A DNA stretch of 44,516 nt, the filler included, from Jimgerdemannia flammicorona (lineage: Eukaryota): the NCBI GenBank assembly GCA_003990765.1. It is 2 parts of 2 records of this genome, joined end to end, with 100 filler letters (N's around TTAATTAATTAA, not from the genome) between each part and the next. Parts side by side here need not be neighbours in the genome. Positions count along the whole stretch, not along the records: positions 22,314 to 44,516 come from RBNJ01001319.1; 1 more part is not named here. One strand, given 5' to 3'. Of the stretch, positions 14,904-43,800 are shown in pieces; positions within the stretch are counted from its first letter, which is position 1; every line of letters begins with the position of its first letter. Both the position numbers and the translations under genes were made by a program. Under the pieces are notes generated by a model, which saw only the letters and a program-made list of their open reading frames with translations, searched no databases and was not told where the DNA came from.

Positions 14904-16364
14904 CTATCTCTTGGCCATAAACCTCTTCAATCTCTTCACTTGTTGTTGCAAATCTCTCGCTCTTGTCCTAACTTCCGCATCCATCTCCGCTCCTCCGTAA
15001 ACCACCTCTGCTTGAAATAATGTTGCGAAAACATCGGCCTCGCTCATCCGTTCTAAGCTATGCGATACCATCGACTCCATCCTTCGTAATTTTCCAGTCC
15101 CCAGCATCATTCGCATAAGATCTTGTGCAGGGAAGTCTGGATATATCTCCCATACCACCTGTTGTATACGTTGAACTCGGCGCGGAAATATATTCGTAAT
15201 TTTCGACATATCTGTAAGCGCCGAGATATTCGAGAGCGGATCCTTAAAATGAAGGACAAATTTCTCCAGAAAACAATTAAACGGCATTCCGACACGGTCA
15301 ATGAAAAATGCCCCAACGCAAGCCGAAAATCTTCGATGCGGTGGGTTGAAAATATGGCTAGGAAGCACCCGATGCACAGGTGTTGTTGGCTGGTAAGGAT
15401 TGTCTAAGTTCTCGTGAGCCTCGATAACGCCTAATAATTCTTGATTTTGTAAATTGTCACGATGGTCGTCGATGTCATGTTGTACGGCTTCTTCTAGTTT
15501 CAAAAGATTGATTGACTGATCGGTGCACGCCGTTAGATAACCCTCGACAACATAATCTATACCGCATAATTTTACGTAACTCCCCCGAAGTCTTTTGAGA
15601 AGATCATTCGACGCCTCACCACACTTACGTCGGACAGTTTTGATATGTGGTATGAAATCCTTGTGACCGCAAATTAGAGGTGACAATATATCTAACGCTT
15701 CCTGATACACTGGAGAGCATGGTGTTGCTGGATCAGGCTTCAACCACAGAAAACGGTCAATCGGATCCAATCCGGCGAAGTCGAGATTAACACCCAGCCA
15801 GGATTTAAAAAACGGTGAGAAAATGTTCAGTGGGGGAATGCAACCCTTGCTAGGCCAAGAGAAGTGCTGTAGAAAAACAGCGTCGACGATGGAAGTTGGA
15901 AGTGCTGAATAGCACCATATCAGTTCCTCCAAAGTCAGTAATGACAGGATGTATATGACGACCTCGGAAGGGAGAGGGAGGATGCTAGAGGCCTCGGAAG
16001 AGCGAGGGATTGAGGGCTTAGACGAGCGGGAGATTGGGGCCTCGAAAGAGTGAGAGATTGAAGCCTCAGAAGAGTGAGAGATTGGAGCCTCGGAAGAGCG
16101 AGAGATTGGGGCCTCGGAAGAGAGAGGGGCCTCGGAAGAAAGAGGGGCCTCGGAAGAGAGAGGGGCCTCGGAAGAGAGAGGGGCCTCGGAAGAGAGAGGG
16201 GCCTCGGAAGAGAGAGGGGCCTCGGAAGAGAGAGGGGCCTCGGAAGAGAGAAGGGCCTCGGAAGAGTGAGGGGAAATGCAGAGAGCCTCGGAAGAGGGAG
16301 AGAGAATGCGAGAGAGTTCATAGATCGTTCTGATGCAGCGGCGTTTGGTGGAATGGGACTCCAT
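14904..16364 (-). CDS. F-box-like protein (486 aa) with an N-terminal SSEAPL repeat
   Basis: Intact single-exon ORF. F-box-like LPLPSEVVIYILSLLTLEEL motif. A diverged paralog at 9430-10250 supports real coding. A (TA)n TATA-like tract lies ~40 bp upstream. Confidence 0.8.
   Translation of the reverse strand: MESHSTKRRCIRTIYELSRILSPSSEALCISPHSSEALLSSEAPLSSEAPLSSEAPLSSEAPLSSEAPLSSEAPLSSEAPLSSEAPISRSSEAPISHSSEASISHSFEAPISRSSKPSIPRSSEASSILPLPSEVVIYILSLLTLEELIWCYSALPTSIVDAVFLQHFSWPSKGCIPPLNIFSPFFKSWLGVNLDFAGLDPIDRFLWLKPDPATPCSPVYQEALDILSPLICGHKDFIPHIKTVRRKCGEASNDLLKRLRGSYVKLCGIDYVVEGYLTACTDQSINLLKLEEAVQHDIDDHRDNLQNQELLGVIEAHENLDNPYQPTTPVHRVLPSHIFNPPHRRFSACVGAFFIDRVGMPFNCFLEKFVLHFKDPLSNISALTDMSKITNIFPRRVQRIQQVVWEIYPDFPAQDLMRMMLGTGKLRRMESMVSHSLERMSEADVFATLFQAEVVYGGAEMDAEVRTRARDLQQQVKRLKRFMAKR
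15985..16300. repeat. Coding minisatellite: 18-bp (GAGAGAGGGGCCTCGGAA) and 24-bp units
   Basis: About 9 near-perfect 18-bp units at ~16110-16265, preceded by 24-bp variants. They encode SSEAPL / SSEAPISR. Confidence 0.95.
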
Positions 16365-16501
16365 CTTCGGATGAAGAGATTGAAGACTGTGTTGGGCTTT
16401 TTAAATATATATATATATATATAAAGCAGTCACCAGCCCTTAGTATGAATTTTGATCAATGGGTGGTCGGGTTAGGATTGGGCAGCGGGTGTAGAGGTCT
16501 T

Positions 16502-19476: not shown

Positions 19477-19974
19477 ACTTCCTCCTGAATAGATGGTCTC
19501 GTCCCTGAGGCATCTATTCAAACTTCCAGGCTTCAATGGTCTATATGTCTTGTACTGTGCAATTTGCTATATGACTGTTTTCCAATGATGTCTCTTCACT
19601 TTCTTGAAGTCGGTGGGAGTTACTCCTCTCAGGTGGTCTATTACTGCTTCATCTTCTTGGAATAACTTGTGGATCCTTTTGGCAATAGTGATCTGTGAGT
19701 GGGAGAGTTGACACTCAGCAATCCAGTCCTCCTTGGTCTTTGCTGGATCCTGATTGAGCACCTGTCCAAGCTTGAAGTACTCTTGGAATTCTGCCCAATA
19801 TTGATAGGCTCTAAAGTGTGAGATCCGAGAGAGATGAGTCTGCACAATACTCTGAATATCCTCATAGTATGGCTCTATGGTCGGAGGCTCGGTGGTGTGC
19901 CATTGTCTTTCGATGGCTCTTTAGGCAGCACTAGTGATCTTGAGTGCCATCACAGTACTTTTGTTATTGGCCAT
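19441..19974 (-). pseudogene. Accessory ORF3 of element A (~177 codons, unknown function)
   Basis: The ATG at 19974 overlaps the end of IN (...AAA TAT CAT GGC CAA TAA). One frame runs to TAG at 19441-19443 with only two internal stops (TAA, TAG), both explicable as C>T. Homologous to the LTR ORF of element B. Confidence 0.75.
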
Positions 19975-22213
19975 GATATTTCTTGAGTCGGTTTTGATAA
20001 ATAGTGGTGGGGATTATTGTGCCTGAGGGTTTTTGTAGCCAAAAGGTGGTCCCTTTTATATCTTGCACAAGGTAAGGTCCTTCCTACTTGGGCTCCAGTT
20101 TTCGTGACCATGAAGCTTCTACTATATTCCGATACACTAGAACTTTGTCTCCTATCTTGATAATCTTCAAGGGCTTGTGGATCTTTTCCACATTCCTCCG
20201 TTATAGTGTCTGCATCTTGGTTATGTAATCCTCAGCCTTCTTCCTGATTTGGTATAGTCTCCGTATTTCCATATCTACATGTTTCCATACAGCATCTCCA
20301 TTGGATGATAGGGTTCCTTGAGAACATTCTTCTCTGAACAGCATTTCTCGAGAGGTAAAGTGGGTGCTTTGTGATCGGATATCCCAGAGAGCAGATAATG
20401 CTATTGGCAGATAGTGATCCCAGTTCTCGTAGTTATCACAGATCTTGGCGATAACATTCTTGAGGGTCTTGTTGGTCCTTTCTACTTGTCCATTTCCTTG
20501 GGGGTGATAGGCTGTGGTCCGAATGTACTGGATCTTATACTTCTTGTAGAGAACCTCAAAGAGCTGGTTCACGAATTCTGTTCCTCTGTCTGTAGTTACT
20601 TGTGTTGGGGTCTTGAACTAGCAGATGATTTCTTTGTGGAAGAAATCGGCAATTGACTATGCATTGGCTTCCTTGAGAGGTCCTGCTTCTATCCACTTCG
20701 TAAAAAGGTCTACAATAACAATGATGTATTGGTTACCAGTCAGGGTCAAGAGTAGAGGGCCGATTACATCCATTGCTATATGGGCAAATGGTACTGGTTC
20801 TATGTATACTGATCCTGGGGCTTGATTCCATTGATCTTATTTCTGTTTCTGGCATTTGTCACATGTCTTGATAAATTGTCTGATATCTTCCTCCATACCT
20901 GGCCACCATATTGTTCTTCTTGCCTTGTCATATGTATTTGTTCCTCCTAGATGGCCAAGTTCATGTACTGATTTTATCGCTTGCTCCTTCTTGTGTTCTG
21001 GTATGACTAGTAGTTTTTCTTTCTTTAGTGTTTCTCTGTCGGTTTCGAATTGTTTCCATGTCCTGTTGATAATCATTTGTGTCCATTCTTCCAGATGTTA
21101 GGGCATCTTTCACTGTCCCAGGTATGTGATAATCCTGTAGTAGAGCTCCTTATTCATGATTGATTTATTGGTTAGAGGTAGTTCAAGGTGTCCGTGAGAG
21201 AGCATCTGTATTGGAATTTGTTCTTCCAGGGCAGTGTATGATGGTTACATCATAGGCTTGTAACTTCATTATCCATCTGGCATAGATTCCCTTGGGTTGT
21301 CCAGTTGTCAGTAGCCAGATAAGAGCTGAGTGGTCTGTCTGGATAGTAAAGTGTCTTCCGGCCAGATAGTAGTGGAACTTTTCCACAGCCCAGATGACTG
21401 CAAGGCATTCCAACTTGTAGGACTCATATTCTTTTTCAGCCCCTCAGGTTCCACGGCTAAGATATGCAATGATATACTCTTTTTTGTCTTCTTTTTGAGC
21501 TAGGACTACTCCTAGTCCCTGTGGACTTGCATCCATCTGAAGGATAAATTCTTGGGTCTAATTGAGTCATCTGAGGATAGGTGCCTGAGTTTGTCTGACC
21601 TTGAGTTTGTCAAATGCTTTTTGTTGTCTGCCAGTCTACTGGAACTTGGTATCCTTCTTGTTGAGTTCGTAGATTGGACCTGCGATGTTGGAGAATCCTC
21701 TAATGAATCTGCAATAGTAGGAGGCAAGTCCCATGAAGGCTTGGGCTTCTGTGATGGTAGTGGGCCTTGGGTATACTGCTACCGCTCGTATTTTGAGGGG
21801 ATCCATGTGTGTTCCATCTCATTTGATGATATGGCCAAGATAGGAGATCTTGATTTCCACAAACTTGTACTTCTTGGGTTTGATATAAAGGCCATGTTGT
21901 CGTAGTCTCTCTATTATCTGCTGTATATGCTGCAGATGTTCCTCGGCTGTCTTGCTGTAGATAATTATATCATCGACATAGACTATCATCCATCTTCCCA
22001 TGTCATAGTGGAAGATTTTGTTCATCATTCGCTGAAAGCTTGCTGGTGCATTGTACATTCCGAATGGCATTCATAGGTAGATGTAGGTTCCGTCTGGGGT
22101 GATGAAGGCTGACTTTTCACTTGCCACTTCTGTGAGTCTGATTTGGTGGAATCCTGAGTATAAGTCCAAGGTGCTGTAGTACTGTGCTTCATCTTCTAGT
22201 GTTATAAGGATGT

Positions 22214-22313
22214 NNNNNNNNNNNNNNNNNNNNNNNNNNNNNNNNNNNNNNNNNNNNTTAATTAATTAANNNNNNNNNNNNNNNNNNNNNNNNNNNNNNN
22301 NNNNNNNNNNNNN
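22214..22313. other. Artificial contig-joining linker
   Basis: 44 N + TTAATTAATTAA (stops in all six frames) + 44 N, exactly 100 bp. Confidence 0.95.
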
Positions 22314-22422
22314 TTTTTTTTCTACCTCTGAAATTCTGGTGATTATCGGCTCCAAATCGTATAAAATGCAATATTTGTCGTACCTGTCCGGTGTGTTTTA
22401 GGTAGTTTATCCTCCCCAACTT

Positions 22423-22461
<39 letters not shown>

Positions 22462-22664
22462 TGTAGCGCGAGTGCGACATTGTGTACAACAATATAATGA
22501 CATTTAATTTGTGTTGCAATACATGCATAAATCTCGCCGCACCTCCCAAATGAGTATTTTTTCTAACCAACTTCATGGCTCAATCAGCCAACAGAAATTC
22601 ACATTGCACACTGCTCCGCAAACCGAAAAATTAAGGTAAAAGTAAAGCGGAATCTTTCGATTTC

Positions 22665-23471
22665 TTATTTCCCGTCGTTTGGATTTCTAAATATCAACAT
22701 TGCCGAAGAATTTTGCGCGTTCCTATAGAGTGCCAGTTTATGGGAAGCAAAGCTGTAAGGAATTCTTACCATCATGTCATTATTATTGTACGTGTTTCTG
22801 AAATCACGCAGAAAATTTCGGAGTGACCAACCGGACTTACTGTGTTGTATTGATTTTCCAGAGCGGCAGGGAGAGGGTTCATCTTGTGCATGTGGCGGTT
22901 GTGCATTCGTAACTAGGCCTTCCACTGCCAGATTCTCCTTGACCGCCACCGACTCCTCTTTTAAATTTGATTTCTTCGATTGGTTTGCCTCCGCCGGATT
23001 GGCCTTTTTAACTGCTTTCATTGTTGGCCGGAAATAGCAAAAACAAGCCGATTCAATCGGACCAAAAAAAAAAAAAAAAAAAAAATCATCACCGGATAAA
23101 TGACCAACCTTCTTCGCCGAGATAAATGTCACTACGATATTTTTCTTCAGCCTCGGCCGCTCATACTCCCGATGCCATAGCTCCTCTGCGTAAAATAACG
23201 CAAACAATAGTATCAATCATTCCGTATCTTCCAACGCATAACACACATATTTTTTAAGTAATGGCCAGCTGTTCAATCGTATCTATCCCACCACATCATA
23301 AAACTTAAATGTATGGCGCAGGTACTCAATCGTACTCAATGTGCGATACCAGGGTTTTGTGATGCGGCGTACGACTGGAAGCGTCCATTGCACGCCAGTA
23401 TCTGTTAACACGCTCATGCAGTCTGTCGATCCGTTTTCCCATCTGGTCACGCATATCTTCCACGAAAGCAC
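22665..23471 (-). other. Possible multi-exon hypothetical gene or gene fragment
   Basis: Coding-like segment VKKANPAEANQSKK...LRNFLRDFRNTY (~22775-23010) is bounded by a CAG acceptor and a GTAAGA donor. The upstream exons could not be joined cleanly. Confidence 0.25.
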
Positions 23472-26161: not shown

Positions 26162-27025
26162 ATGCCAAAGGTCACGGAAAAGAAGGTTGACGACGACGAC
26201 ATTCGTCTTGAGCGCGATCGAGAACGGCAGAAGCGTGCGCAAGCCCTCGGCGCAGAGCGTGAGAGGGACCGCCAGAGAAAGCAGCAACGACGTAAACAAG
26301 AGACCGCCGACGAGCGCAGCACTCGCCTCGAGAAAGACCGACTGAGAAAGCAGCAAAAGCGCGAGAAAGACGCCAACAAGGAGCGCGAGCGGGACCGCGA
26401 GAGGAAGAGGCAAAGACGTGCACAAGAGACCGAAGAGGAGCGCAACGCCCGCCTCGAGAGTGACCGCATAAGAAAGCAGCGAAAGCGTGAGAAAGACGCT
26501 GCCGACGAGAGAGAGAGGGACCGCGAGAGGAAACGGCAGCGGCGCGAGCAAGAGACCATCGACGAGCGAAACGCACGACTCGAGAAGGACCGACAAAGAA
26601 AGCGGCAAAAACGCGAGCAAGAAAGCATAGACGAATGCGACACTGGTATCCAGACGAGAACTGATGCAGAACAACGGAGGTCCGAGCAACAATCGGATTC
26701 TGACGAAGAACGAGAGCATCGCCTTGCCGGAGTCTACAAACGAGCTGATGTAGAAGTCCTGCAACCTCATCGTAATGCCCCACTGCCCCAGTCTGATCTA
26801 CAGCGACGTATTCCGGGGCTTACACCGCACGATCAATTGGTCCTGAGAGAAGTGATCAAGATTGAGCACATCCTCTGTCCGACATGTAACGAGTCCTTTC
26901 AGTCCGTCGCCGCTCTTGGTAAGGAAGAATGCCGACGCTGCATCGCGGTGAGGCCGGTACCGAGAAAATTGTCCACCAAAAAAACGAGAGCTCCGGAACC
27001 CGAAAAGTCTCTTTTGCCTAATTAG
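26162..27025 (+). CDS. 287-aa STPR-like repeat plus C4 zinc-finger protein, resembling the N-terminus of fungal Helitron RepHel proteins
   Basis: Intact ORF. Three 42-aa (126-bp) units containing ETxxERxxRLExDR (26261, 26387, 26513). LCPTCNESF...ECRRC...PRKLS resembles, from memory, the CPTCNERFP...ECRRC...PKKFS segment preceding DUF6570 in fungal Helitron-like proteins. Confidence 0.65.
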   Translation: MPKVTEKKVDDDDIRLERDRERQKRAQALGAERERDRQRKQQRRKQETADERSTRLEKDRLRKQQKREKDANKERERDRERKRQRRAQETEEERNARLESDRIRKQRKREKDAADERERDRERKRQRREQETIDERNARLEKDRQRKRQKREQESIDECDTGIQTRTDAEQRRSEQQSDSDEEREHRLAGVYKRADVEVLQPHRNAPLPQSDLQRRIPGLTPHDQLVLREVIKIEHILCPTCNESFQSVAALGKEECRRCIAVRPVPRKLSTKKTRAPEPEKSLLPN

Positions 27026-30049: not shown

Positions 30050-31400
30050 AGTCACCACGCCAGACGTGAAAGAATCGACAAGGAGGCACACTTACAACCC
30101 ACATCGCCACGCTAATCCAAACACGCCGACACGATGGCCTTCATGGTTGGTCTCGTCGTCCCTTCGTCAAGCTCCACCACGCAGGAAGAAAAGGGAGGAG
30201 AAAGCAGTCTTCAGAATTACCTCCTCGAGCCCGACCAGCTTCTGCTCGGCTTGTTGACCTCAGCATCGAGCTCAGCGACCAGGGCTTGTAGCTCTGTAAT
30301 TTGTTTTTCAGCTCACCAATGGCCGTGCCGCGCTCTTCGACTTCTGCGCGTGCATTCGCATTCAGCTTGCGGATGACCGTATCGCGTTTCTCGAGCTCAC
30401 CCTTCAGCTTGCTGACTGCGTCTTCTTGAATGCTGCATTTGGACATGATATTCTCGAGCCGGCTAGCTCCTGCTCGGCCTGCCTGTTGACCTCGGCGTCG
30501 AGCTCAGCGGTCAGGGTCGTGATGGTTTGTTCATGCCCTTGGGTTGGACGAGATCAGCTTCAAACACGCGGAGCGAGGCAATTTCGCGGAGCGAGGCAAT
30601 TTCGCGGAGCTCAGCTTCGATCAATTGCAATTTTAGCTCACGAATGATGTCGCCTTTGTTTTGCATCTCGTTCTTCAGCTCCCTTACCAATCTTCTTCAA
30701 CTCACCCGCATCGTCTAACGACTTCTGCAAGACCGCTTTCTCCTCCTTCGGATTTCCCTTCTCTTCCTGCGCGGCGGAGCTTGACGGGGGAAAGACGAGA
30801 CCAACCAGAAAGCTATAGCGTTGGCGTGTTTGGATTGGCGGGACGATGTGGGTAGTGGATGTGCTTCGGTGACACATGAGGCTGGGCGAGTGGGTGGGCG
30901 AGGTGACGGAGATATGTGGATGAGTTTTGAAGTACTTGTCGATTCTTCCACGTCTGACGTGGTCGAAAACGCGATACGGCCATCTGCAAGCGGAATACGC
31001 AAACTGCGGTGGTGCAGGAGGAATTGGAGCATTCATGCGCAGAAGTCGAAGAGCGTAACACGACCATTAGTGAGCTGAAAGCGCAAATTACAAAGCTACA
31101 AGCCCCGACAACTGAGGTCAACAGGTGGACGCAGTAGCTGGCCGGACTCGAGAATATCACGTCCAAATGTAACGCTCAAAAGGACAATCAGCAAGCTGAA
31201 GAGCGAGATCGAGAGACGCGATACGGTCATCGGTGGCAAGCTGAATGCGCAAATTACGGTGGTGCAGAAGGAGTTGGAGCATGCACGCGCAGAAGTCGAG
31301 GGGCATGTACGTACAGAAGTCGAGGAGCGTGATACGGCCATCGGTAAGCTGAAAGCGCAAATCTCGGAGCTACAGGAAGAGTTGGCGGAGCTTAAGTGAT
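30050..31400. repeat. Scrambled inverted duplication of coiled-coil gene segments
   Basis: 30055-30210 is the reverse complement of ~30730-30965 with indels. 30245-30510 is the reverse complement of parts of 31030-31375. Confidence 0.8.
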
Positions 31401-32241
31401 GGCACAGAAGATTGAAAATGTTTACCTGAAAAATACCCTCGCGATGAGATTAAAAAGGTGGAGGCGAATTTTCAGCTTGCGCAACTTTGGGGACAGTTCG
31501 CAACGGCAGACTCCACGGGCAGGCAGTGCAAGGCTCAGTTGGATTGGACTAATGTACATCTGAGACAACAGATGTTCCGCACTGGCGAACCTAGGCAGGA
31601 GCGGAGGCCTGTCTTCGCGCAAGTGCAGGTAGTTCAAACAAGGCCAGCACAGATATTGGGATGATTGCTAGTATCAGGCCAAGCTCGCAGAAATTCGAGG
31701 CAAGCTTGTTTCGTCAAAGCAAGTAATGTCAGAGCTCGCATTACAGAATCAAATGCTCAAGGTGCAGGAAAGACGGTTGGAGGGCGCAATGGCTGATGTG
31801 CAGGTGATCTGGGTGGATGACAGAGGTTTTGTTGATGCAATTGGCAGTGTGCGAAGCGAAAATCACGGAGTTGGAGGCGGAAAAGAAGATTGCCGTCGAG
31901 ACGCAAGATTCGCACGCAGTGAGATATGAAGAGGTCGTCCGGATGAACAATCGTCTGATAAAATGGCTTGAGCAGGCCCAGTCCACTGTCGAGTTAAAAA
32001 AACGGCGATTTGGACGGTTCGAGGAAGAGAAGACGGGGCAGATGTATGTCCTGTCCAGGTCATTGGGAGAGCTGGAGAGGAAGCTGGAGTCCAAGGCGCT
32101 TGAGGAGGATGCCAACTCATGCAAGGACAAGGACACGATTGAGACCCTCCGTTTGGATCTTGCGGAGGCGCAAAACAAGTCCAAACAGCTTGAATAGACC
32201 GTCGAGGTGAGGAAGAAGATTAAAGATCTGGAGCTATATAT

Positions 32242-33647
32242 TGTAACAGTGATCTCAGAATAATGACATCATCACAGGAGACAGCCTTTCCTTGTAAGCC
32301 ACCATAGCAGAGCATAAGAAGATCATATGGCATGATTCACCCAGGTTATAAGATGAGTAATGATGACTAACCATGAGTCATCATGACCACAAGACAGATA
32401 TCTCAAAGAATATAAAAGAAGGATCAAGGAACTACAGTAGCAGCAATCCAAACAAAGCTCATAGAAATAATTTTAAAGATTTACTATAAATAAATATCTG
32501 TTGTTCACCAAATTTCAAGGTCTAGGAACTACCAAGGCCCCTCAGTCTAGGATAGGATGTTCTAAGATATTAGAAGAGCTATGAGGATCTATACAAGAAG
32601 AACTTCTAGCTTTAACCTGGATACTGGTGATCTTTATCATTATATCCTCTACCATCATGAAATGGAAACAAGAATTACTATTGTTATCAAATATCTTTAG
32701 ATGTAGCAAGAGTATGAAATAAGAAATCTCCTCTGCTGGAAATTTCTTTAGGCCAGTCTCCAAGAGATTCAAGATGCTACCCTCATGAATGTATATGAAA
32801 TAAAGATAGCTAAGAAGATTTATCAAGTCTTTAGATATACATTGTAGTTAATTCTCAACTTAAAATATACTAGGATCTCAGACTTTAAAAAACTATCAGC
32901 CTGTTATACAAATATACTAGAGGCCATAGTGGCCACAGAAGCCCAGTTTACTATTACTCTCAATAGTAATGAAGTAGAAGAGTTCTGGTATCCCATTCTC
33001 CAGGAAAATTCAGATCAATTTATATAAGAATTGATTTTAGCATTCTAAGGTTCTAGTATCCAGACTAGACCTCTCCAAGATCACATATTTATTTCTTATT
33101 TTGTAGAAGAGAATATTATAGATTAGAGAGCCTTTGCTGCTGCTGAACATGATAATGACATTAGCAATGATATCATCCTATACAACATATGCAAGATGTA
33201 TGAAGTATGTGAAATAGATAAAATATTCATAGATCTTATTTTCTTCAAAAATATCCTAACCTCTGACAGCAATGAAGATAAAGTTCCCATGGTCCTAAAC
33301 ATTCTGCTTTAAGTTCTTAGTAATACTGAAATCTACTGATATTCTGAACTTGTGCAACCATTCATACAGATACTTGAATTTATACTTACAACTATAGTAT
33401 TCTGTATTTTTTATTTAGTTATTGGAATTTATATTTAGCTTTATAACTTAGCAATTATTGAATTATATTTTGTATAAATACCCCTCTTATTTCCTTTGAA
33501 ATAAAGTCAGTTTCAGTTTACTTATACTCAATTTTATACAAGCAATCTAAGAGATAACAAGACAGTTTAAAGATAAGAAGTTTGAGGACTATAAGACCTT
33601 GAAAAGAATCTGATATATTTGAAGAACTCAGTAACTACTATATGACA
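32242..33647 (+). repeat. 5' LTR of element B (1406 bp)
   Basis: TGTAACAGTG...ATATGACA, collinear with 39331-40858. Confidence 0.93.
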
Positions 33648-33739
33648 ACTTGGTACTTATTAGCTGGTGATTTAAGATGAATCCCTCACTTTCAAGCTAA
33701 AAAATAAACAACTACCATAATAACTACTCTAACTACAAG

Positions 33740-34760
33740 AGTTATCCCCTGTAAGAATTCAAGATAAGATAAAAATGCATCCCTCTACATTCTATAGATA
33801 TATTACTGAAGAGTCAATTGAAGACTTTGAACAATTTACTACTATATAAGCTCTTGCCATAAATATACAATTGGCCCTTCTATCTATCAGTCTCAGAGGA
33901 CCTATCAGAGATAAGTTCAATGCAGCCACCATTACTAATGCTGGTGTAGCCAAACTTGCCAATATGAAGACCTTTCTCAGAACTACATACTATACTGAAG
34001 AGATCAAGTAAGCTCTCAAGAATCAACTCAACACTATCTACCAGGAACTCAGTAAAGATCCCAACTCATTCTATACCTGAATCTACTATCAGATTGTTTT
34101 AGCTGGCTATAATGATACCCTCAAGGAACAAATAGCTGATTCAATCTTCCTCAAAGGAGTTTATCCTGAAATTGCCCTAACAATCCAGTCTATCCTAACT
34201 GCTCTGACTCTTGACTAGAAAGTAGTCTTTGTACAGAGATATTGAACTGCCAGACACTCTTTTGAATACTCAATAGAGAAAATAACTGACATCAAGATAG
34301 AGCTATCAAAGCTAATCAGTATCATATCTACTACAGTTGTAAACAGACAATCATCCCCACCTACCCCCAAGATAACCAAAGCTGACCCAGTAGAAGAACT
34401 TACTAAGCAGTTTGCTAAGATGACTGCATATCTTAGTAATATTGTTAGAGAAGTCTGAAGTGCCAACAAGAGACCAGTACAGAGATTTGCAGTTACTACA
34501 AAAGAATATAATATCATATACTTCAGATGTGGAGAAGAAGGCCACTATGTAAAGAGTTGCATAATCAAAACAAGATATAAAAACCAACTAAGCAATGCTA
34601 TCAGAATCAGAGAACAAATCAATACAGTAGTCATCAAGGAGATTGGTAATACTGATGATAAAGAATACTATAAGGAGCCTGAATTCTACCCTGTTACTGA
34701 AGATACCAGAATCTGGTCCAAGCTCTATGACAAGAAGGGGGCAATAGCAAGCCAGTTGGA
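33740..34760 (+). pseudogene. gag with CCHC zinc knuckle
   Basis: Gag-like ...ALKNQLNTIYQE..DPNSFY...IFLKGVYPEI. The knuckle reads YFRCGEEGHYVKSC at ~34519-34560, with the first C mutated TGC>TAC. Boundaries approximate. Confidence 0.8.
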
Positions 34761-35139
34761 AGACTAAAGAAGACCCCAGCTATCACTATTCAAAGCAAGA
34801 TCCAATCTGAGGAGATTGATTAAGATATAGAGTTAGATGAAGCTACCTGCCAAATTATTGAAGGCACTACTCCAGTCTTAGGAGAAAGTGAAAGCAAGAA
34901 AGAACAAAAGCTGCACAAGAATAAGATCTATCAGTATAATACATATCTACAAGGATCTCAAGGAACAGAAGGTCAATGCTACTTTTGGACAACTAGCTGA
35001 AGTCCCTGCCTTCAGACAGCAGTTGAGAGTAGGACTTGCAATCACTGTCAAGAATCAAGAGTACAAGATTGTAGAAGCTCACAATATACAAGAAGAATCT
35101 GAAGACTCAGGCAAAGAATCTAAAAACTAGCATAAGATA

Positions 35140-35510
35140 TCAGCCTATACTCTATGTCAGATCAAAGATAGTATCTTTGATGCCATTATTGATACTAGTA
35201 CTGGAGGATACCTTATGAGTAAGAAGACAATTGACTATCTAGACTGAGACATTGAAGAGTCTACCAAAATAGTCTATATCACAGCAGATAGTATACAAGC
35301 TACCCCCCTAGGTAAGATCTGAGAAGTCTCCATCAAGATTGGAGGAGCTACTATTCCAGTATATATGATTGTTACAAGTACCACCAACTATGATATCCTA
35401 ATTGACAACTAATGGCTTCATAAGGCCAAGGCTGTTATTGACCTCAATGCCCAGAAGATACAGATCAACTATAAAGAAAGAAAGATATAAGTCTCTATTA
35501 ATATCTATAA
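35140..35510 (+). pseudogene. Aspartic protease
   Basis: DAIIDTSTGGYLMS (DTG>DTS by G>A), with YDILIDN*WL at the C-terminal motif. Confidence 0.85.
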
Positions 35511-35859
35511 AGAAGTACTGCTAGATATAGAAGAAGGAGATAAAGAAGATACAGAAGTCTTCATACACTCAGTGTATATATAAGAATAAGAGCAAGACAC
35601 CTAAGCTCACAGATGAGCAATAGTACAATAAGATTATTAATAACTATACTCCTCAAGAAAGATGCCCCCATGGTACTAGAATGTACTGCTCTAAACACCT
35701 GAATAACTGCTGGTCCTGTATCAGTGAAGTCAGAAAAATCTGCCAACAAAAGTATGAACAAGAAGCTGCTAAAGCAAAAAGGAAAGCCAAAGAAGATGAT
35801 CAGCTCTCAGAGCTTCAAGCTGATACTAAAGATAAGAAGGAACAAGAATCAGGCATCAC

Positions 35860-36226
35860 CCTCAAGGTCAAGAAGTTTCATCCCAAAGCCAAGATCCCAG
35901 AATACAAAACTGAAGAAGCTATAAGAATGGACCTTGTCAGTATTCAAAATGCTATCCTTGAACTACAGACCACTACTCTACTTAGTATTGAAATTGAAGT
36001 CAAGTTGCTAGAGAACTATACTAGAATTATCAAGACCAGGAGCAGTCTGGCCAAAAGTAAAATCTCAGTTGAAAGAGAAGTAATTGACCCTGATTATACT
36101 GGTGAGATCTTCCTTATAGTCAGGAATCACAACCCCACTACCCCATTGAAAGTTAAGAAGCATAACAGAATTGACCAGATACTGATCCATGAAGTCAAGA
36201 AGCTCAAGATCACTGAAGCCATTTAA
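35860..36226 (+). pseudogene. Trimeric-type dUTPase domain
   Basis: Motif I (AIRMDL), II (TRSSLA), III (VIDPDYTGEI) and IV (NRIDQILI). Motif V was not seen. Confidence 0.9.
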
Positions 36227-36459
36227 TTCATCAAGACTAAGAGAGGAGAATAAGACTTTGAATTTACTAGAAGAGGAGCCTATACTATCACTAAGATTAC
36301 CAAACTCAAGCACAAGAAAGACAAGAACCAGAATAAGTACATATATACTATTGGAGAAAACTTTCCCCTAGAGGAATAATTTCTCAAGATCCTGCACCAG
36401 AATAAAGGAATACTTGCTATAGACTTCAGGGACATCCACAATCAAGAACCCAAGTACTA

Positions 36460-37754
36460 CTATGAAGTTGATACTGACAATACCAAGCCTATCTATCAGA
36501 AAGCCAGACCCATACCACCTATCTACAGAGAATAGCTGTGAGCAAAACTCAAGGAAATGGAAGAAGCTAGAATCATCAAGCAAGCTATCAGCCTCTGGGC
36601 TTCACCCATTATCCTTGCTCCAAAGAAAGGAAGCAAGCCTGGAGAGTTTGCTCCAAGACTCTGTATTGATTACAGAAAGCTCAATACAATCACTAAAAAG
36701 AATAGGCAGCCTTTACCAAATATTCAAGAAATTCTTACCACTTAGCAAAGTCAAATACTACACTACCTTAAATCTGTTCTCAGGCTTCCATCAGATTGGT
36801 CTCACTCAAGATGCCAGTGAGAAGTCAGCCTTCATCACACCTAATACCACCTATGTCTACCTGCAAATACCATTTAGAATGTGCAATACCCCAGTAAGTT
36901 TTTAGTGAATAATAAACAGAGTCTTCAGCAATGAGATTGAAAAATAGCTCTTTGTCTATATCAATGATGTGATTACCTTCAGTAATACTGTATGAGAATA
37001 TGTCAACTATATATAGCTAGCTCTCAAGAAGCTCAAGGAATATGGCCTCTATATCAAGTCTAAGAAGTACAAGTTTATAACTCAGAAAATCACCTACCTA
37101 GGACACATCATCAACCAGACTGGAATTCATACAGACTCCATGAAGATTGAGGCTATTGTAGCCTACCCAAGACCCAGAACAACTATAGAAGTCCATGCCT
37201 TTCTTGGACTGGTCTCCTACTATAGAAGATTTATCAAAGGATACTCTAATATTACAGTATCTATCTATGAGCTACTGAAGAAGGAGACCAAATTTGAATG
37301 AACCAAGGAATGTCAAGAAATCTTCAATGAACTCAAGACCAGATTGACCCAAGCACTCATTCTTAAAAGACCAGATTGGAACCTAGAGTTCATCCTGTAG
37401 ACAGATATAAGCACTATAGGACTTGGAGCAGTCTTAGCTCAGAAGAAAGATGGACATAAATATATCATCTCCTATATAAGCTGAGGCACTCATGGAGTAG
37501 AACAGAACTATGAGTCATACAAGCTTGAATACTTAGCAGTAGTTTGGGTAGTAGATAAGTTCCACTACTACCTAGCCAAGAAATACTTCACTATTCAAAT
37601 AGACTATCCTGCTCTCACCTGGCTATTCTACACTCTGAACTCCAAAGAAATATATGCTAGATAGATCTACAGACTGTAAGAGTATAACTATACTATTAAG
37701 CACTGCTTAGGAAGAACCAATGCAAATGCTGATGCACTCTCAAGGATACTCTGA
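36460..37754 (+). pseudogene. Reverse transcriptase - RNase H
   Basis: WASPIILAPKK...RLCIDYRKLN, LNLFSGFHQI, VYINDV (YIDD>YIND), GLGAVLAQ, KFHYYL, ANADALSR. Confidence 0.95.
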
Positions 37755-37779
37755 AATACCCCCATAAAGACTATTCAAT

Positions 37780-38976
37780 AAGAATAAGGAGCTATACTAT
37801 GAATTAATCAGCTGTCTTGGGCAGTAGAAGATGCCTAACCATCTTGAACCCTAGACTATCACTATCATTAACCAGACTTGGAAACAATTTGAACTAGACA
37901 ATACCACACTCAGAAAAGGAGGAAAGCTTATAATACCTGAACACAAGAAGTATCAAGTAATGAAGAAAGTATACAAACAAGGATACCTAGGAAGAACCAA
38001 CATATATGACAAAGCAAGAAGAACCATATAGTGACCCAAGATGGAAGAAGACCTATGCCAATTTGTCAAAAGGTGTAATAAGTACTAAAAACAGAAATAA
38101 GATCAGTAAGACCAGGTACCCAGGTCATCAAGAATTGAGCTGATCCCCTTCTACCACATTGTGATAGATATCATTGGACTGCTACTAGTAATATTATCAG
38201 AAAACTGCTATATTATAGTTATCATAGACCTCTTTACCAAATAGATAGAAGCAGGAGTATTACAAGAAGTCAATGCTCTCTCTATAGCCAACTTCCTGCA
38301 CTGAGAAATCATTTACTACTACAAGACACCAAAGCAAATCACTACAGATTATGGTACAGAATTTGTCAATAGATTCTATAAGATAATATATCAGAAATAT
38401 AAGATTCAGTATATCAAGACCACTGTGTACCACTCTCAAGGAAATGGACAGACAGAAAGAACAAACAAGACTCTTAAGAACATCCTGGCAAAGATCTCAG
38501 ACATGTATGACAATTGAGATAACTACCTCTCAACTACTCTCTCTGTCCTATGAGACATATGGTCATAGAGTATATACTTTACCCCAAGAGAACTGCTCTT
38601 CAGAGAAGAAGATTCTAATGGAACCTCAGCTACAAACCTAGATCTAACTTAGAGATGAATTGACTCAGAAATCCAGAGACTGTACCAAATCAAGAAGAAG
38701 GCTAAAGATTATATCATCAAGTTACAAGTGCTGACAAGGAAGAATGTAGAAAAGAATTACAAGACCCTAGAACCCATCTAAATCAGAGAAAAGATTCTAC
38801 TGTATCAGAATATATTAGAAGTCTCATGGTTGTGAAAACTGAAGCTAAAATAGGAAGGACCCTTCTATATATAAAATATTAAGAGAATTATCTTCTGGCT
38901 TAGAAAACTCTCAGAAATCATACTGCCTACTATGATACATAAGAACAGACTCAAGAAGTACCATGAATCTATATAA
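37780..38976 (+). pseudogene. Integrase (HHCC, DDE core, GPF); no chromodomain seen
   Basis: Collinear with the integrase of A: YDKARRTI, TDYGTEFVN, TTVYHSQGNGQTERTNKTLK, EGPFY, NRLKKYH. Confidence 0.93.
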
Positions 38977-39330
38977 GAGAAGCAAAATATGATGATCACC
39001 TATGAGGTTCTAGTTCATGAATCATAACAGCATATCTTGTAACTAGCAGGCAATCTGTCTAGACCATTCTCTAAGAGATACAACACCAGTAACTACTCAT
39101 CTGTGAGACTTTCAAAGCCAGAGGAGTTCAAACTATCAATTGATTGATCAAGATCAGAATCAGGCCCTTGCTCTATATGAAGAGAGTGACTCTTCACTAT
39201 TATACCAAAATGTATAAAGAAGATGCTAGCTCATAAATACCACTTTTTGACCCCCTTAGAACCAGCAAATGTTTCAGACTGGACTAATGAATAAGGATGG
39301 TTAAGAGAAGATCCTTATTTAAGAGAAAGA

Positions 39331-40858
39331 TATAACAGTGACCTCAGAATAATAATATCATCATAGGAGATAGTCTTTTCTTGCAAGTCACTAGATTGGA
39401 GTACAAGAAGATTATATAGCATAACTCACCCAAGCTACAAGATGAGCAATGATGATTAACCATGAGTCATCATGACTATAAGATAGATATCTTGAGGAAT
39501 ATAAAAGAAGGATCAAGAAACTACAGTAGCTGCAATCCAAAATAAAAAAATATCTGCTGCTTGCCAAACCTCAAGGTTCAGGAATCACCAAGGTCTCTCA
39601 GTCTAGGAAAGGATGTTCCAAGACATCAGAAGAGCTATGAGGACTCATATAAGAAGGACTTCTAGCCTCAATCTGGGTACTAGTAACTCTTATCATTATA
39701 TTCTCTACTGCTATAAAATGGAAACAAGGATTACTATTGCTACTGAATGTCTCTGAATGTAGCAGGAGTATAAAATAGGAAACCTCCTCTGCTGGGAATT
39801 CCCTCAGATCAGTCTCCAAGAGATTCAAGATGCTACCCCCATAAATGTATGTAAAATAAGAATAGCCAAGAAGATTTATCAGGTCTTCAGGCATGTACCA
39901 TAGTCAATCCCTAACTTGGAGTATACTAGGATCTCAGACTTCAAGAAACTATCAGCTCACTATATCAATATACTAGAGGCCATAGTGGCCACAGAAGTCC
40001 AGTCCACTATTACTCTCAATAGTAATGAAGTAGAAGAGTTCTGGTATCTCATCTTTCAGGACAATCCAGATCAATTCATACAAGGATTGATCTCAGCATT
40101 CCAAGGCCCCAGCATCTAGGTTAGACATCCTCAAGATCCCACATTTGTTCCTTATTTTATAGAAGAGAATATTATAGATTGGAGAGCCCCTGCCACCACC
40201 AAACATGATAATGTCATTAGCAATGATGTCATCCTGCATAATATATATGAGATGTATGAAGTACATGAAACAGATGAAATGTTTATGAACCTCATTTCCT
40301 TTGAGGATATTCTGACCTCTGGCAGTAACAAAGATGAAGCCTCCATAGTCCTGAACATTCTGCTCTAAGTTCTTAGTAACACTGAAATCTTCTGGCATCC
40401 TTTTTCTGTATAACTGAATTCTACCAGCATTCTTTTTCTGTAACACCTGAATCTTCAAGCACTCTTTTTCTGTACCACCAAAATCTACTGATATCCTGAA
40501 CTTATACAACTATTTATACAGACACCTTACAACTGTAGTTTTCTGTGTTCCAGTATTTTATTTGGTTATTGGAATTTATATTTAGCTTTATAACTTAGAA
40601 ACCATTGAATTATATTTTGTATAAATACCCCTCTTATTTCCTTTGAAATAAAGTCAGTTCCAATTCACTTACACTCAATTCCATGCAAGCAATCTAAGAG
40701 ATAACAAGACAGTTTAAAGATAAGAAGTTTGAGGACTATAAGACCTTGGGAAGGCACTCTAATAAGAACTTGCTTATAACAAACTTGTGGTTAGTCTAAG
40801 AGATATACCTTGAAGAGAATCTGACATATTTGAAGGACTCAGCGACCACTACGTGATA
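39331..40858 (+). repeat. 3' LTR of element B (1528 bp)
   Basis: TATAACAGTG...ACGTGATA (termini TG>TA and CA>TA). Follows the PPT. Carries segments at ~40390-40480 and ~40750-40808 that are absent from the 5' LTR. Confidence 0.93.
39550..40500 (+). pseudogene. Accessory ORF inside the LTR of element B (second copy at ~32494-33340)
   Basis: A single frame of roughly 270-310 codons whose stops are TAG/TAA/TGA, several of them sense in the other LTR. TATAAAAG lies ~50 bp upstream (~39500; ~32411). Homologous to ORF3 of A. Confidence 0.75.
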
Positions 40859-43800
40859 ATATACACGAAAGATTACAAAATTACTGTGAACAAGATAAAC
40901 GTCACAATAGCCAAGCTGCGCGGCGAGTTGAAGATCAAGACGAAATCGATAGACGAACTGATAGCTAAACTCGAAAACGCAAAGGCCGCGGGCAACCAAA
41001 TACAGCAATCAATTGATGTGAAGGCGACTCAACTCAAAGCGCTGATAGCGGAAATAGACCCGTAACAGAGTCACAAGAATTGTCACGATCGCTGGACTGC
41101 CAAGTATAGGCAGACGGTGCATGATATCAGGGATGAGGTCGAGCGGCTGCGCAACAAACCGGGTGCCATTGTTATGAATGAGAACGCGGTGTTTCGGATG
41201 CATGAATTGGAAAAGGCCGTTGAAACAAGTGTGAAATAAATTGTAGAGCTTAAGGCCATGATGGCGGAGGTGGTCAAAGAAAAGCAAGTTCTTGAGAGGG
41301 ACATAGCTCAACTTGAGAAATCGGTGTAGGGTGAGGGTAAGAAGATAATCGAAGTGAGCGAGAAGCTGTTGGAAGCCGAGCAGGTAGTCGCTGTCAAGGT
41401 CGAGATGGATGCGGCGTTGGTGTTTGGGGTAGATTGATTGAAACATACCAAGCAGGAATTGCAGAGCAGACTTTGGGGAAAACTGTCAATAGAAAATAGG
41501 GGCGAGCTGGGCTTATAGTAATATGAACAAATGTGTGGCTCTTCGATTGCCTCATGCAAGGGGAACGGCCACATGTCCATTGTACACGTCGTCAAAAGGG
41601 ATTTCATTAATACATTTCCTGTATAGTTATATACAAGGTTTAAACATTCCGTGGCAGCTGATTGAATACCAGGGAAACGGCGTCGCAATAAGTGTTGTGT
41701 GACATAATTACTATAAGGTAGCTCGAAATTGCTTACTGCACAATAACATCAACCGTTCTCGATATGATAGTTGTGTCTATCGAAACAATGCCTTTACGTG
41801 TCAAATATTTTGCACTTTAAGGTATTCTAAGCCACCTATTCGTTTTCAACTTGGATGATTGTGACGGCACCTAACAGTTTTATATATGCGCTTAGCAATG
41901 TGGGAAGATCGTTATCTCAAATCCCGACATGGAAGAGGTTGAGACCAATTTTCCCGTGACCTTAATGTGTTCATTAGTCGGAGGGGAAAAAAAAAAGTCC
42001 TCGATGGCAGACTTTTGCGATCTGTAATTCACGAGTTTCAATAATACTAGAGCACACGTTTGACTTGCAGCGTCCTGCCGGAAACTTTCAGCCAATAAAA
42101 GTTTAACAATTTTAACCTGAATTTTGGTACGCGTCCTTGATGCCGCATGTACGATGGGCATGAGAAGACTCAGCACATAGAAAAGGTCAAGCATTAGTGA
42201 AGGTACACATACTGTAGTCTACTCTGCATCCAAGATTCACAGCGAAACTTGCAGTTTTATGAGTTTCTGGCGACATTGTTTTCTGTTTGGAATAGGGCAA
42301 ATAAATGGAGCACAAGAAAATAAAAATAATGCCAATATCTGGTTTTTTTTGGATCGCGCTGATATATAGTTATGTAGAGTGGTTGTCATTCACCAAATTA
42401 TGGTTCTCTATCAATCGAGTCCCTCACGACAGGTTCATTGTACCGCTAGAATCCATATGTGTATGCGTATATACGTGTTTGTTTCGATTCCCGGCACGGG
42501 ACCTGTCCGCAGCCGATTCGGGCGTTATTTTCATGGTTTATGAGATTAAATATATGCAATCGATTGGCAACTGGATGGTTTTTTTTTTTTTTTTTTTTTT
42601 TTGTCCTGAACTGACCCGAAATGCAACTGTGAAGTTCAGTTGACCATACTGTATTTACAATTAATGCACCGAGAATTTAGCAGTGCATAACCGCATTTGT
42701 GGCCTTCCTTACCTATTTTTAGAGCAAAAATGCACTCGGTAGCGAAGTGCCAGTGAAGGCGAAAGTTAATAAAATAATAAAATTAATCATTAATTCACAG
42801 CGAATGAGCCCGCTTTCATTTATTGAATAGAGTTGCGCGTTGTCTGTCAAGTTATCGGTGGTAACTGACTAGAAGATGGACTCAGGAACGTTCCCTTCAT
42901 TTATTAGGATCTGTCGTCACTTTTTCTGTGAACGATGAGAAAGTTTGCGGTTCGAGGAACAAATTAGCAATAAACTAATCAGCCAGCTACCCGGAGGATG
43001 GCATATGACGGTAAATTAATGAGATGGTAGCATAACGACCTGAAAACTCGAACAAGTTCAATATTTTATACTGCTGCAGTAACGTAAAAGTGCGAGGATA
43101 TGTTATAGATTCGATTTTGTGTCTATGTCCTATAGTTTAACATTATCACGTCAAATTCTTCGATATTGATATACGACTCCACGGCTCCTTGGTATCATAG
43201 TCGTGACGGTGAACTCCCACATTTATGACTCCGAACGAGGTAAGAAAATTATTATATTGTGGCACATAAGGTACTAAGTGCAAAAATGAAGGAAACTGGA
43301 GATGCCAAACATTATAGAAGGCATCTGGACTTCAAACCGTAGATCGAATGTCCTCTCATGCCCTAACGTGTTTTTCTATGGGAATATGCAAACATAATGG
43401 AATTTAGGAGAATGATAATGGGAAGTTCTTTTGGTCCGTACTAACATGTCACTGCTATGAACTATATATACATGTCGGACAATACGGTGAAGGTACAAGA
43501 ATAGGTGAGTTCTAAGGCCGCATATTTTTGGTTTGCTGTCAATACTCATTGCGTCTACCAAAACAACTACTGACATAAAACTTTATCCCTTGAGTTGGCT
43601 CGACGTAATTAAATTCATTTGTCGCGTGAATAAGTTGTCTTGGAAACATACTCTAGCTTAGCTCGGTTGAGCGAGTTAAATTAAAGGTGAGAAAATGACT
43701 CCGTTCGAAGAGGAAGCTCCTTGTTGATTGGTGATATCTGTCGTAATCGCCCTCCTCTTTTGTGCTGAAATCGCTTAGCCACGACCCTTAAATAATTGGT

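Follow-up and report, generated by a model that had tools for sequence, protein, structure and literature searches.

Accessory genes located inside a long terminal repeat (LTR) are textbook features of a few retroviruses. In mouse mammary tumor virus (MMTV), a virus of mice, the sag gene lies in the U3 part of the LTR and encodes a membrane glycoprotein. Its frame of ~300 codons is contained wholly within an unusually long LTR of ~1.3–1.5 kb, so that each provirus has two copies of it, and it precedes the genomic promoter. In foamy viruses, Tas (Bel1) is an accessory protein of ~300 amino acids with an acidic C-terminal activation region, which is encoded by a 3′-end gene reaching into U3 and uses a promoter distinct from the main one of the LTR. 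Here, we describe a gene found within both LTRs of a Ty3/Gypsy (Metaviridae) retrotransposon, hereafter element B, at positions 32242–40858 on the plus strand of a 44,516-nt stretch of Jimgerdemannia flammicorona DNA; "the window" refers to this whole stretch. It is very probable that each LTR of element B holds the remains of a genuine gene of 271–272 codons, at a position that would correspond to U3, and that this gene belongs to a previously undescribed family with intact members in environmental assemblies.

LTR retrotransposons are known to carry genes beyond gag-pol, as element B does, with extra open reading frames (ORFs), either env-like or captured, reported 3′ of pol in plants, rotifers, and insects (PMC6431247 and PMC5408684). 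Unlike the gene described here, they occupy the interval from pol to the 3′ LTR, so that each element has one copy and solo LTRs have none (PMC6431247). A search of the full-text literature, with most subscription journals and supplements outside its reach, found no description of a protein gene carried in the LTR of a fungal retrotransposon. The LTRs of element B and the two copies of the gene are as follows (LTR limits come from direct repeats and LTR–LTR alignment).

32242–33657, plus strand: 5′ LTR of element B, 1416 nt, ends TG...CA
39331–40858, plus strand: 3′ LTR of element B, 1528 nt, ends TA...TA
32494–33312, plus strand: LTR gene, 5′ copy, same frame as in the 3′ copy, 9 internal stops
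39550–40368, plus strand: LTR gene, 3′ copy, 272 codons plus TAA (40366–40368), 5 internal stops, start codon ATA

The first-pass annotation had proposed a frame of ~270–310 codons, starting at the ATA at 39550 and carried inside both LTRs. This frame is present, with 272 codons up to the TAA ending at 40368, and both copies lie wholly within the LTR bounds, in sense orientation, from start codon to stop. The distance from the LTR start to the frame is 219 nt, and that from its end to a downstream TATA motif (see below) is 252 nt. Alignment of the two copies is ungapped between columns 253 and 1071, with 0 indels in the ORF. When stops were counted over 819 nt in frames +0, +1, +2, −0, −1, and −2, we found 6, 16, 25, 8, 20, and 29 in the 3′ copy and 10, 18, 30, 13, 22, and 30 in the 5′ copy. 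Dinucleotide-preserving shuffles, scored on the best of six frames, rarely contained as few stops (4/2000 for the 3′ copy and 17/2000 for the 5′ copy). As had been noted earlier, the stops in the two LTRs complement each other, with the 5′ copy reading AF(stop)GSSIQ where the 3′ copy reads AFQGPSI(stop). Upon restoring the C or G state at sites showing a transition between the LTRs, 4 stops were left, one of them the terminal stop, and the frame was open over its final 154 codons.

We searched 5.8 billion sequences with the 3′ copy, in which stops were replaced by X. Scoring of 110 candidates at E ≤ 0.01 yielded 5 proteins, all 5 of which align with the LTR frame. The best relative, P0003, is a 271-residue protein displaying 67% identity to the 3′ copy over 100% of its length (E 3.4e-108). 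In tblastn, the 3′ copy scored E 2e-117, and the 5′ copy was matched by P0003 with E 3e-96 and 58% identity. A profile of the 5 proteins, run against 1.84 billion representatives, gave 6 matches at E ≤ 0.001, one of which was dropped, and a wider profile search gave 12 proteins. These profile searches added P0012, P0013, P0014, P0016, P0017, P0018, P0019, and P0020, with E values for distant relatives ranging from 1e-32 to 1e-111 against a profile partly built from the same sequences. Two candidates were rejected: P0015 (E 6e-4), a spurious and internally repetitive match that was kept out of all alignments, and L001, found by searching metagenome contigs with the family profile, which shows 30% identity over 78 residues among ORFs that look unrelated and was judged to be a chance match.

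The family falls into four subfamilies: 1) the P0003 group, to which the window copies belong, 2) P0012 and P0016, 3) P0013, and 4) the P0017 group, consisting of a cluster of six near-identical members (P0017 and P0021–P0025) plus P0014, P0019, and P0020. The longest members have 259–342 residues, and the other three subfamilies are 26–48% identical to P0003. Common to the family are an MP[PA]xR N-terminus, an acidic tail, and four blocks (WxEYEI, AKKIHQVFRHxP, WNPILQDNPDQ[FW]LQ, and F[QE]GPxI), and aromatic, proline, and glycine positions are conserved across the four open subfamilies. Since these diverged subfamilies stay open over 259–342 codons and share residue positions, selection appears to have acted on the protein. 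The relatives also bear out the suggestion that the ATA at 39550 was once an ATG, because this codon is aligned opposite their Met and intact relatives start there with MPAAR, MPALR, MPPIR, or MPPTR. The same is true for the proposal of an open ancestor, with intact relatives carrying Q or W at the stops shared by the window copies. Q or W stands opposite every one of the 5 internal stops in the 3′ copy, which leaves none that would have to be explained by something other than deamination. As judged from these comparisons, the LTR frame represents a genuine gene, formerly open, that belongs to an orphan and previously undescribed family, and both copies in the window are dead.

No Pfam family was matched at E ≤ 10 by 7 family proteins (the two window copies and 5 intact members), including the families of the MMTV superantigen, foamy-virus Bel/Tas, and lentiviral Nef. 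There were 0 relatives among 210 pattern matches in viral contigs and 0 among 23 pattern matches in prokaryote genome contigs. A search for a fused form of 600–2000 residues, weak by its own rating, found none. Two oddities concern the C-terminus. In P0007, it leaves the family pattern past the LISFE motif (this protein was kept in the alignments), while P0023 and P0025 share a C-terminus different from that of P0017 past ...ERND(E/K)VT, which suggests a frameshift or an alternative end recurring in several copies.

The two LTRs of element B differ at 226 aligned sites, of which 214 are transitions and 12 are transversions. Because of this imbalance, the decay of element B is of the repeat-induced point mutation (RIP) type, with C-to-T and G-to-A changes; methylation-driven deamination may alternatively be its cause. 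The transitions comprise 137 C/T and 77 G/A differences, and the commonest context of the differences is CpA. About half of the C/T differences are followed by A (56–71 of 137, the range reflecting how sites with a next base that also differs are counted). Mutation has gone further in the 5′ LTR: of the C/T sites, 87 of 137 have T there, and of the G/A sites, 48 of 77 have A. Together with blocks of 20–25% G+C elsewhere in the window, and with the dUTPase-bearing Gypsy type, this mutation pattern would suit a filamentous fungus as the host. Transitions also account for the TA...TA ends of the 3′ LTR, whose counterparts in the alignment are the TG...CA ends of the 5′ copy. In addition, the LTRs are distinguished by five indels of 33, 83, 11, 6, and 64 nt, which is many for sequences identical at insertion. 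These include the loss or gain of a whole array of 32-nt repeats, as well as a 64-nt piece near the 3′ end.

How might such a gene be expressed? The first-pass annotation had pointed to two TATA boxes and an AATAAA, and all three motifs are found at the expected positions. They are listed below together with two neighboring features.

39462–39470 (5′ LTR, 32373–32381), plus strand: palindrome ATGAGTCAT, ~30 nt before the upstream TATA motif
39500–39507 (5′ LTR, 32411–32418), plus strand: TATAAAAG, candidate promoter of the LTR gene, identified as a motif
40381–40486, plus strand: tandem array, 3.3 units of 32 nt, between the gene stop and the second TATA motif
40620–40627 (5′ LTR, 33473–33480), plus strand: TATAAATA, candidate promoter for the genomic RNA, given its location close to the LTR 3′ end
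40647–40652 (5′ LTR, 33500–33505), plus strand: AATAAA, candidate poly(A) signal of both the genomic RNA and a putative LTR-gene mRNA

The AATAAA lies 20 nt past the downstream TATAAATA. If the genomic RNA starts ~30 nt past TATAAATA, this signal would be found only at the 3′ end of the RNA and not at its 5′ end. On the basis of this arrangement and the assumed start site, 39331 to ~40650 would be U3, and we infer that the LTR gene is in U3, with putative U3/R/U5 boundaries. A transcript initiated past the upstream TATAAAAG would run through the gene to the LTR's own AATAAA, producing an mRNA of ~1.1 kb. In this model, either LTR, or a solo LTR, would constitute a complete transcription unit, for which we put the chances at slightly less than even. 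The palindrome, a possible AP-1/Gcn4-type site that we treat as a lead only, has 5 matches in the window versus 0.62 expected, a number reached by 1 of 100 shuffles. The 32-nt array is missing from the 5′ LTR, where it corresponds to the 83-nt alignment gap, and is thus not essential to LTR structure.

The composition of the protein offers a hint about its function. In P0003, the first 60 residues have a charge of +8 (including the stretch RRAMRTRTRR) and the last 61 residues a charge of −14. Acidic tails are also present in P0004, P0016, P0013, and P0017, with that of P0017 reaching −26, and a basic N-terminus is also found in P0004 and P0017 (P0016 is truncated N-terminally, and the N-terminus of P0013 is near-neutral). 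In every case, the tail displays bulky hydrophobic motifs, namely DLIxF (DLISF, DLIIF, DLINF, or DLITF), VLNF, and DDWPLFYPL. Acidic residues mixed with aromatic and leucine residues in a disordered tail are the make-up of acidic activation domains. The protein might thus be a nuclear regulator stimulating the LTR promoter, a tentative proposal drawn from composition that we consider rather unlikely as it stands. If so, the acidic and hydrophobic tail would act as an activation domain raising LTR transcription, and the 32-nt repeat array between the gene and the downstream TATA motif would be a candidate target. The charge layout agrees with, but does not establish, the trans-activator role put forward as one option in the first-pass annotation. 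A role in anti-silencing or RNA export may also be considered. Some members show a clathrin-box or Atg8-interaction pattern, which is inconsistent across subfamilies.

By analogy, the nearest known case would be MMTV sag for topology and foamy-virus Tas for the proposed workings. Element B resembles MMTV in having a long frame wholly within an unusually long LTR, in two copies upstream of the presumptive genomic promoter. It differs in being a retrotransposon without env rather than a retrovirus, and its LTR protein reads as having no evident membrane segment, in contrast to the membrane glycoprotein Sag. The working model shares with Tas the size of an accessory protein, a separate promoter, and an acidic C-terminus. 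However, the internal promoter of foamy viruses lies in env and not in the LTR, and searches of Pfam and PDB showed no sequence or fold similarity between Tas/Bel1 and the LTR protein.

Overall, we think it likely that element B carries a genuine LTR-borne accessory gene, encoding a putative regulator, which is the best explanation for the data at hand. Several results count against this reading. First, the AlphaFold2 models are poor, with a mean predicted local distance difference test (pLDDT) score of 35.9 using 5 sequences and 45.2 using 16; they predict helices within residues ~18–184 and two short strands, with disorder in the tail beyond ~213. With models this poor, the protein may be largely disordered or the alignment may be too shallow. 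Second, functional homology was found nowhere in Pfam, PDB sequences, the ESM Atlas, or by Foldseek. There were 0 PDB sequences at E ≤ 10 in a profile search, nothing usable in the ESM Atlas (best feature score 0.83 and best TM 0.33), and 0 PDB structures at E ≤ 0.001 when Foldseek was run with the second model (best 0.95), a result that is meaningless on so poor a model. Third, gene callers list open frames only, which makes the intact relatives a selected sample. Fourth, the LTR position is known from one element alone, element B; tblastn with 5 family members detects only the two LTR copies in the window, and a second Gypsy element there thus lacks the gene. Fifth, the spacing between TATAAAAG and the start codon is 50 nt in the 3′ LTR versus 83 nt in the 5′ LTR, because of the 33-nt indel. 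Last, TATAAA abounds in this A+T-rich sequence, with 88 occurrences on both strands of the window versus ~56 expected, and occurs four times on the plus strand of the 3′ LTR; two of these, inside the ORF at 39712 and 39769, appear from the sequence to have been created by transitions.

The points about the TATA motif bear on the alternative that survives best, according to which the LTR gene is real and has no promoter of its own: only the copy in the 3′ LTR would be expressed, at the 3′ end of a genomic or spliced RNA, and the 5′ copy would be silent. Retroviral sag and nef genes are expressed in this way, from the 3′-terminal frame of genomic or spliced RNA, and a gene in U3 would be included in the 3′-terminal portion of each genomic transcript. 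The statistically unremarkable upstream TATA motif and its unequal distance to the start codon in the two LTRs both fit this scenario. Against it, no splice acceptor was identified, and both TATAAAAG and ATGAGTCAT are kept in the two LTRs; this last point is weak, and their survival proves nothing, because RIP-type mutation spares A and T. Moreover, 18 of 20 listed family members are on contigs of 0.57–1.6 kb, which would fit a short transcript but is no test since the contigs in this collection are short anyway. We regard expression without a dedicated promoter as a serious possibility, albeit one with the balance of probability against it.

An improbable alternative is that the gene is a passenger, which the ancestor of one lineage took from the host or from another repeat into its LTR and which is useless to the retrotransposon; the relatives in the databases would then simply be genes of hosts or of other repeats. 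It draws on the gene's LTR location having been established for element B only, on the second Gypsy element (~19500–23300, minus strand) being devoid of it, and on the known capture of ORFs by LTR retrotransposons, as documented in PMC6431247. However, the gene is complete, in sense orientation, and bracketed by the LTR start on one side and the downstream TATA and poly(A) motifs on the other. Furthermore, a second subfamily looks repeat-like, with deamination-type decay and several near-identical copies. Compared with P0017, deamination-type replacements in P0019 and P0020 number 27 against 5 and 11 against 2, respectively, a directional pattern resembling that of the window copies compared with P0003 (45 against 8 and 58 against 6). 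Intact P0003, P0004, and P0005 instead differ symmetrically (10 against 11, 7 against 17, and 9 against 16). By these counts, P0019 and P0020 appear to have undergone the directional deamination that repeats suffer in such genomes. In addition, all 20 family proteins with a listed source come from ENA or JGI assemblies, on contigs of 567–19434 nt (4.8 kb for P0013 and 19.4 kb for P0023), and none of the 20 has a name beyond "hypothetical protein." We therefore favor an accessory gene of this retrotransposon lineage over a passenger, with good though not full confidence. The weakest explanation is that there is no gene and that base composition, or conserved LTR regulatory DNA, produced the long frame. 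It could invoke the fairly open antisense frame (8 and 13 stops; each LTR has a run of 101 codons), but real sense frames commonly give rise to open antisense ones. The stop depletion is seldom reached by shuffles, and relatives at 26–48% amino acid identity keep the frame open, so that in our view, on sequence grounds, the database has already refuted this explanation and its probability is negligible.

The remainder of element B has the following features; domains were identified using Pfam, with stops read through, unless stated otherwise.

32238–32241 and 40859–40862, no strand: target-site duplication ATAT, read from the sequence
33658–39320, plus strand: internal region, with many stops and frame changes
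~34459–34767, plus strand: gag CCHC knuckle, motif read from the sequence, upstream of the protease
35188–35472, plus strand: protease, RVP_2 8.5e-4
35885–36259, plus strand: dUTPase, PF00692, 1e-14
36714–37112, plus strand: reverse transcriptase, RVT_1 1.8e-14
37302–37685, plus strand: RNase H, RT_RNaseH_2 9.6e-28
37933–38415, plus strand: integrase, Integrase_H2C2 1.7e-6 and rve 9e-7
39321–39330, plus strand: polypurine tract AAGAGAAAGA, adjoining the 3′ LTR

The domain order is hence gag, protease, dUTPase, reverse transcriptase, RNase H, and integrase, and no chromodomain was detected at E ≤ 0.01 in Pfam. Fungal Ty3/Gypsy elements with a dUTPase are on record, such as Tmt1 of Tuber (Riccioni et al. 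2008, as cited in passages of PMC6431247 and PMC12581995). Like element B, Tmt1-type elements have their dUTPase between protease and reverse transcriptase (PMC6431247); an LTR gene is not mentioned in these passages. This accessory domain has been described in certain Gypsy elements of fungi, rotifers, and planarians.

Element B lies beside or within a coiled-coil–like ORF (32195–32241 and 40859–41065). A frame at 31808–32197, just 5′ of the element, closes with TAG, and GTGAGG, a possible intron donor, is found ~10 nt further on; a second coiled-coil–like frame continues past the 3′ LTR. The insertion site may be an intron of a host gene. A Pfam search with 102 other ORFs from the window matched only pieces of the second Gypsy element, apart from two sub-threshold coiled-coil matches (PF13334 and PF25600), both in ORF 31079–31396. 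This second Gypsy element, at ~19500–23300 on the minus strand, is broken (RVT_1 1.8e-21, RT_RNaseH 2e-20, and Integrase_H2C2 2e-20). Blocks of 20–25% G+C flank it, and no recognizable LTR pair was found; an Atlas search with an RNase H piece of it gave no finer placement than Eukaryota. Elsewhere in the window, three tandem copies with a 126-nt period and 73% identity occur at 26209–26622 within a purine-rich stretch, where frames of 215–296 codons are open on both strands and have no Pfam match. Finally, a 498-codon open frame on the minus strand (14904–16400), also with no Pfam match, has about ten SSEAPL repeats followed by an F-box–like LPSEVVIYILSLL.

LTR-borne genes are themselves known, and what appears to be new is the presence of such an accessory gene in a retrotransposon, together with a new protein family. 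With a gene in this position, every element has two copies and a solo LTR still retains one, which means that its dosage, its persistence, and any domestication by the host have to be rethought. As an orphan family with intact members, it is directly testable. We know of no trans-acting regulatory protein of a fungal retrotransposon; if the LTR protein is a regulator, it would be the first known to us. If its role is instead anti-silencing, it would bear on how elements expand in genomes defended by RIP or methylation. The most far-reaching version of the model, which we believe unlikely to hold in full, is that of a fungal Ty3/Gypsy lineage that is "complex" in the way complex retroviruses are, in which every LTR functions as an independent gene, complete with promoter, 271–340 codons, and a poly(A) signal, encoding a Tas/Tat-like activator or an anti-silencer that works in trans on all copies. 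Were LTRs such autonomous units, solo LTRs would stay working genes, and hundreds of dispersed copies would keep the family on.

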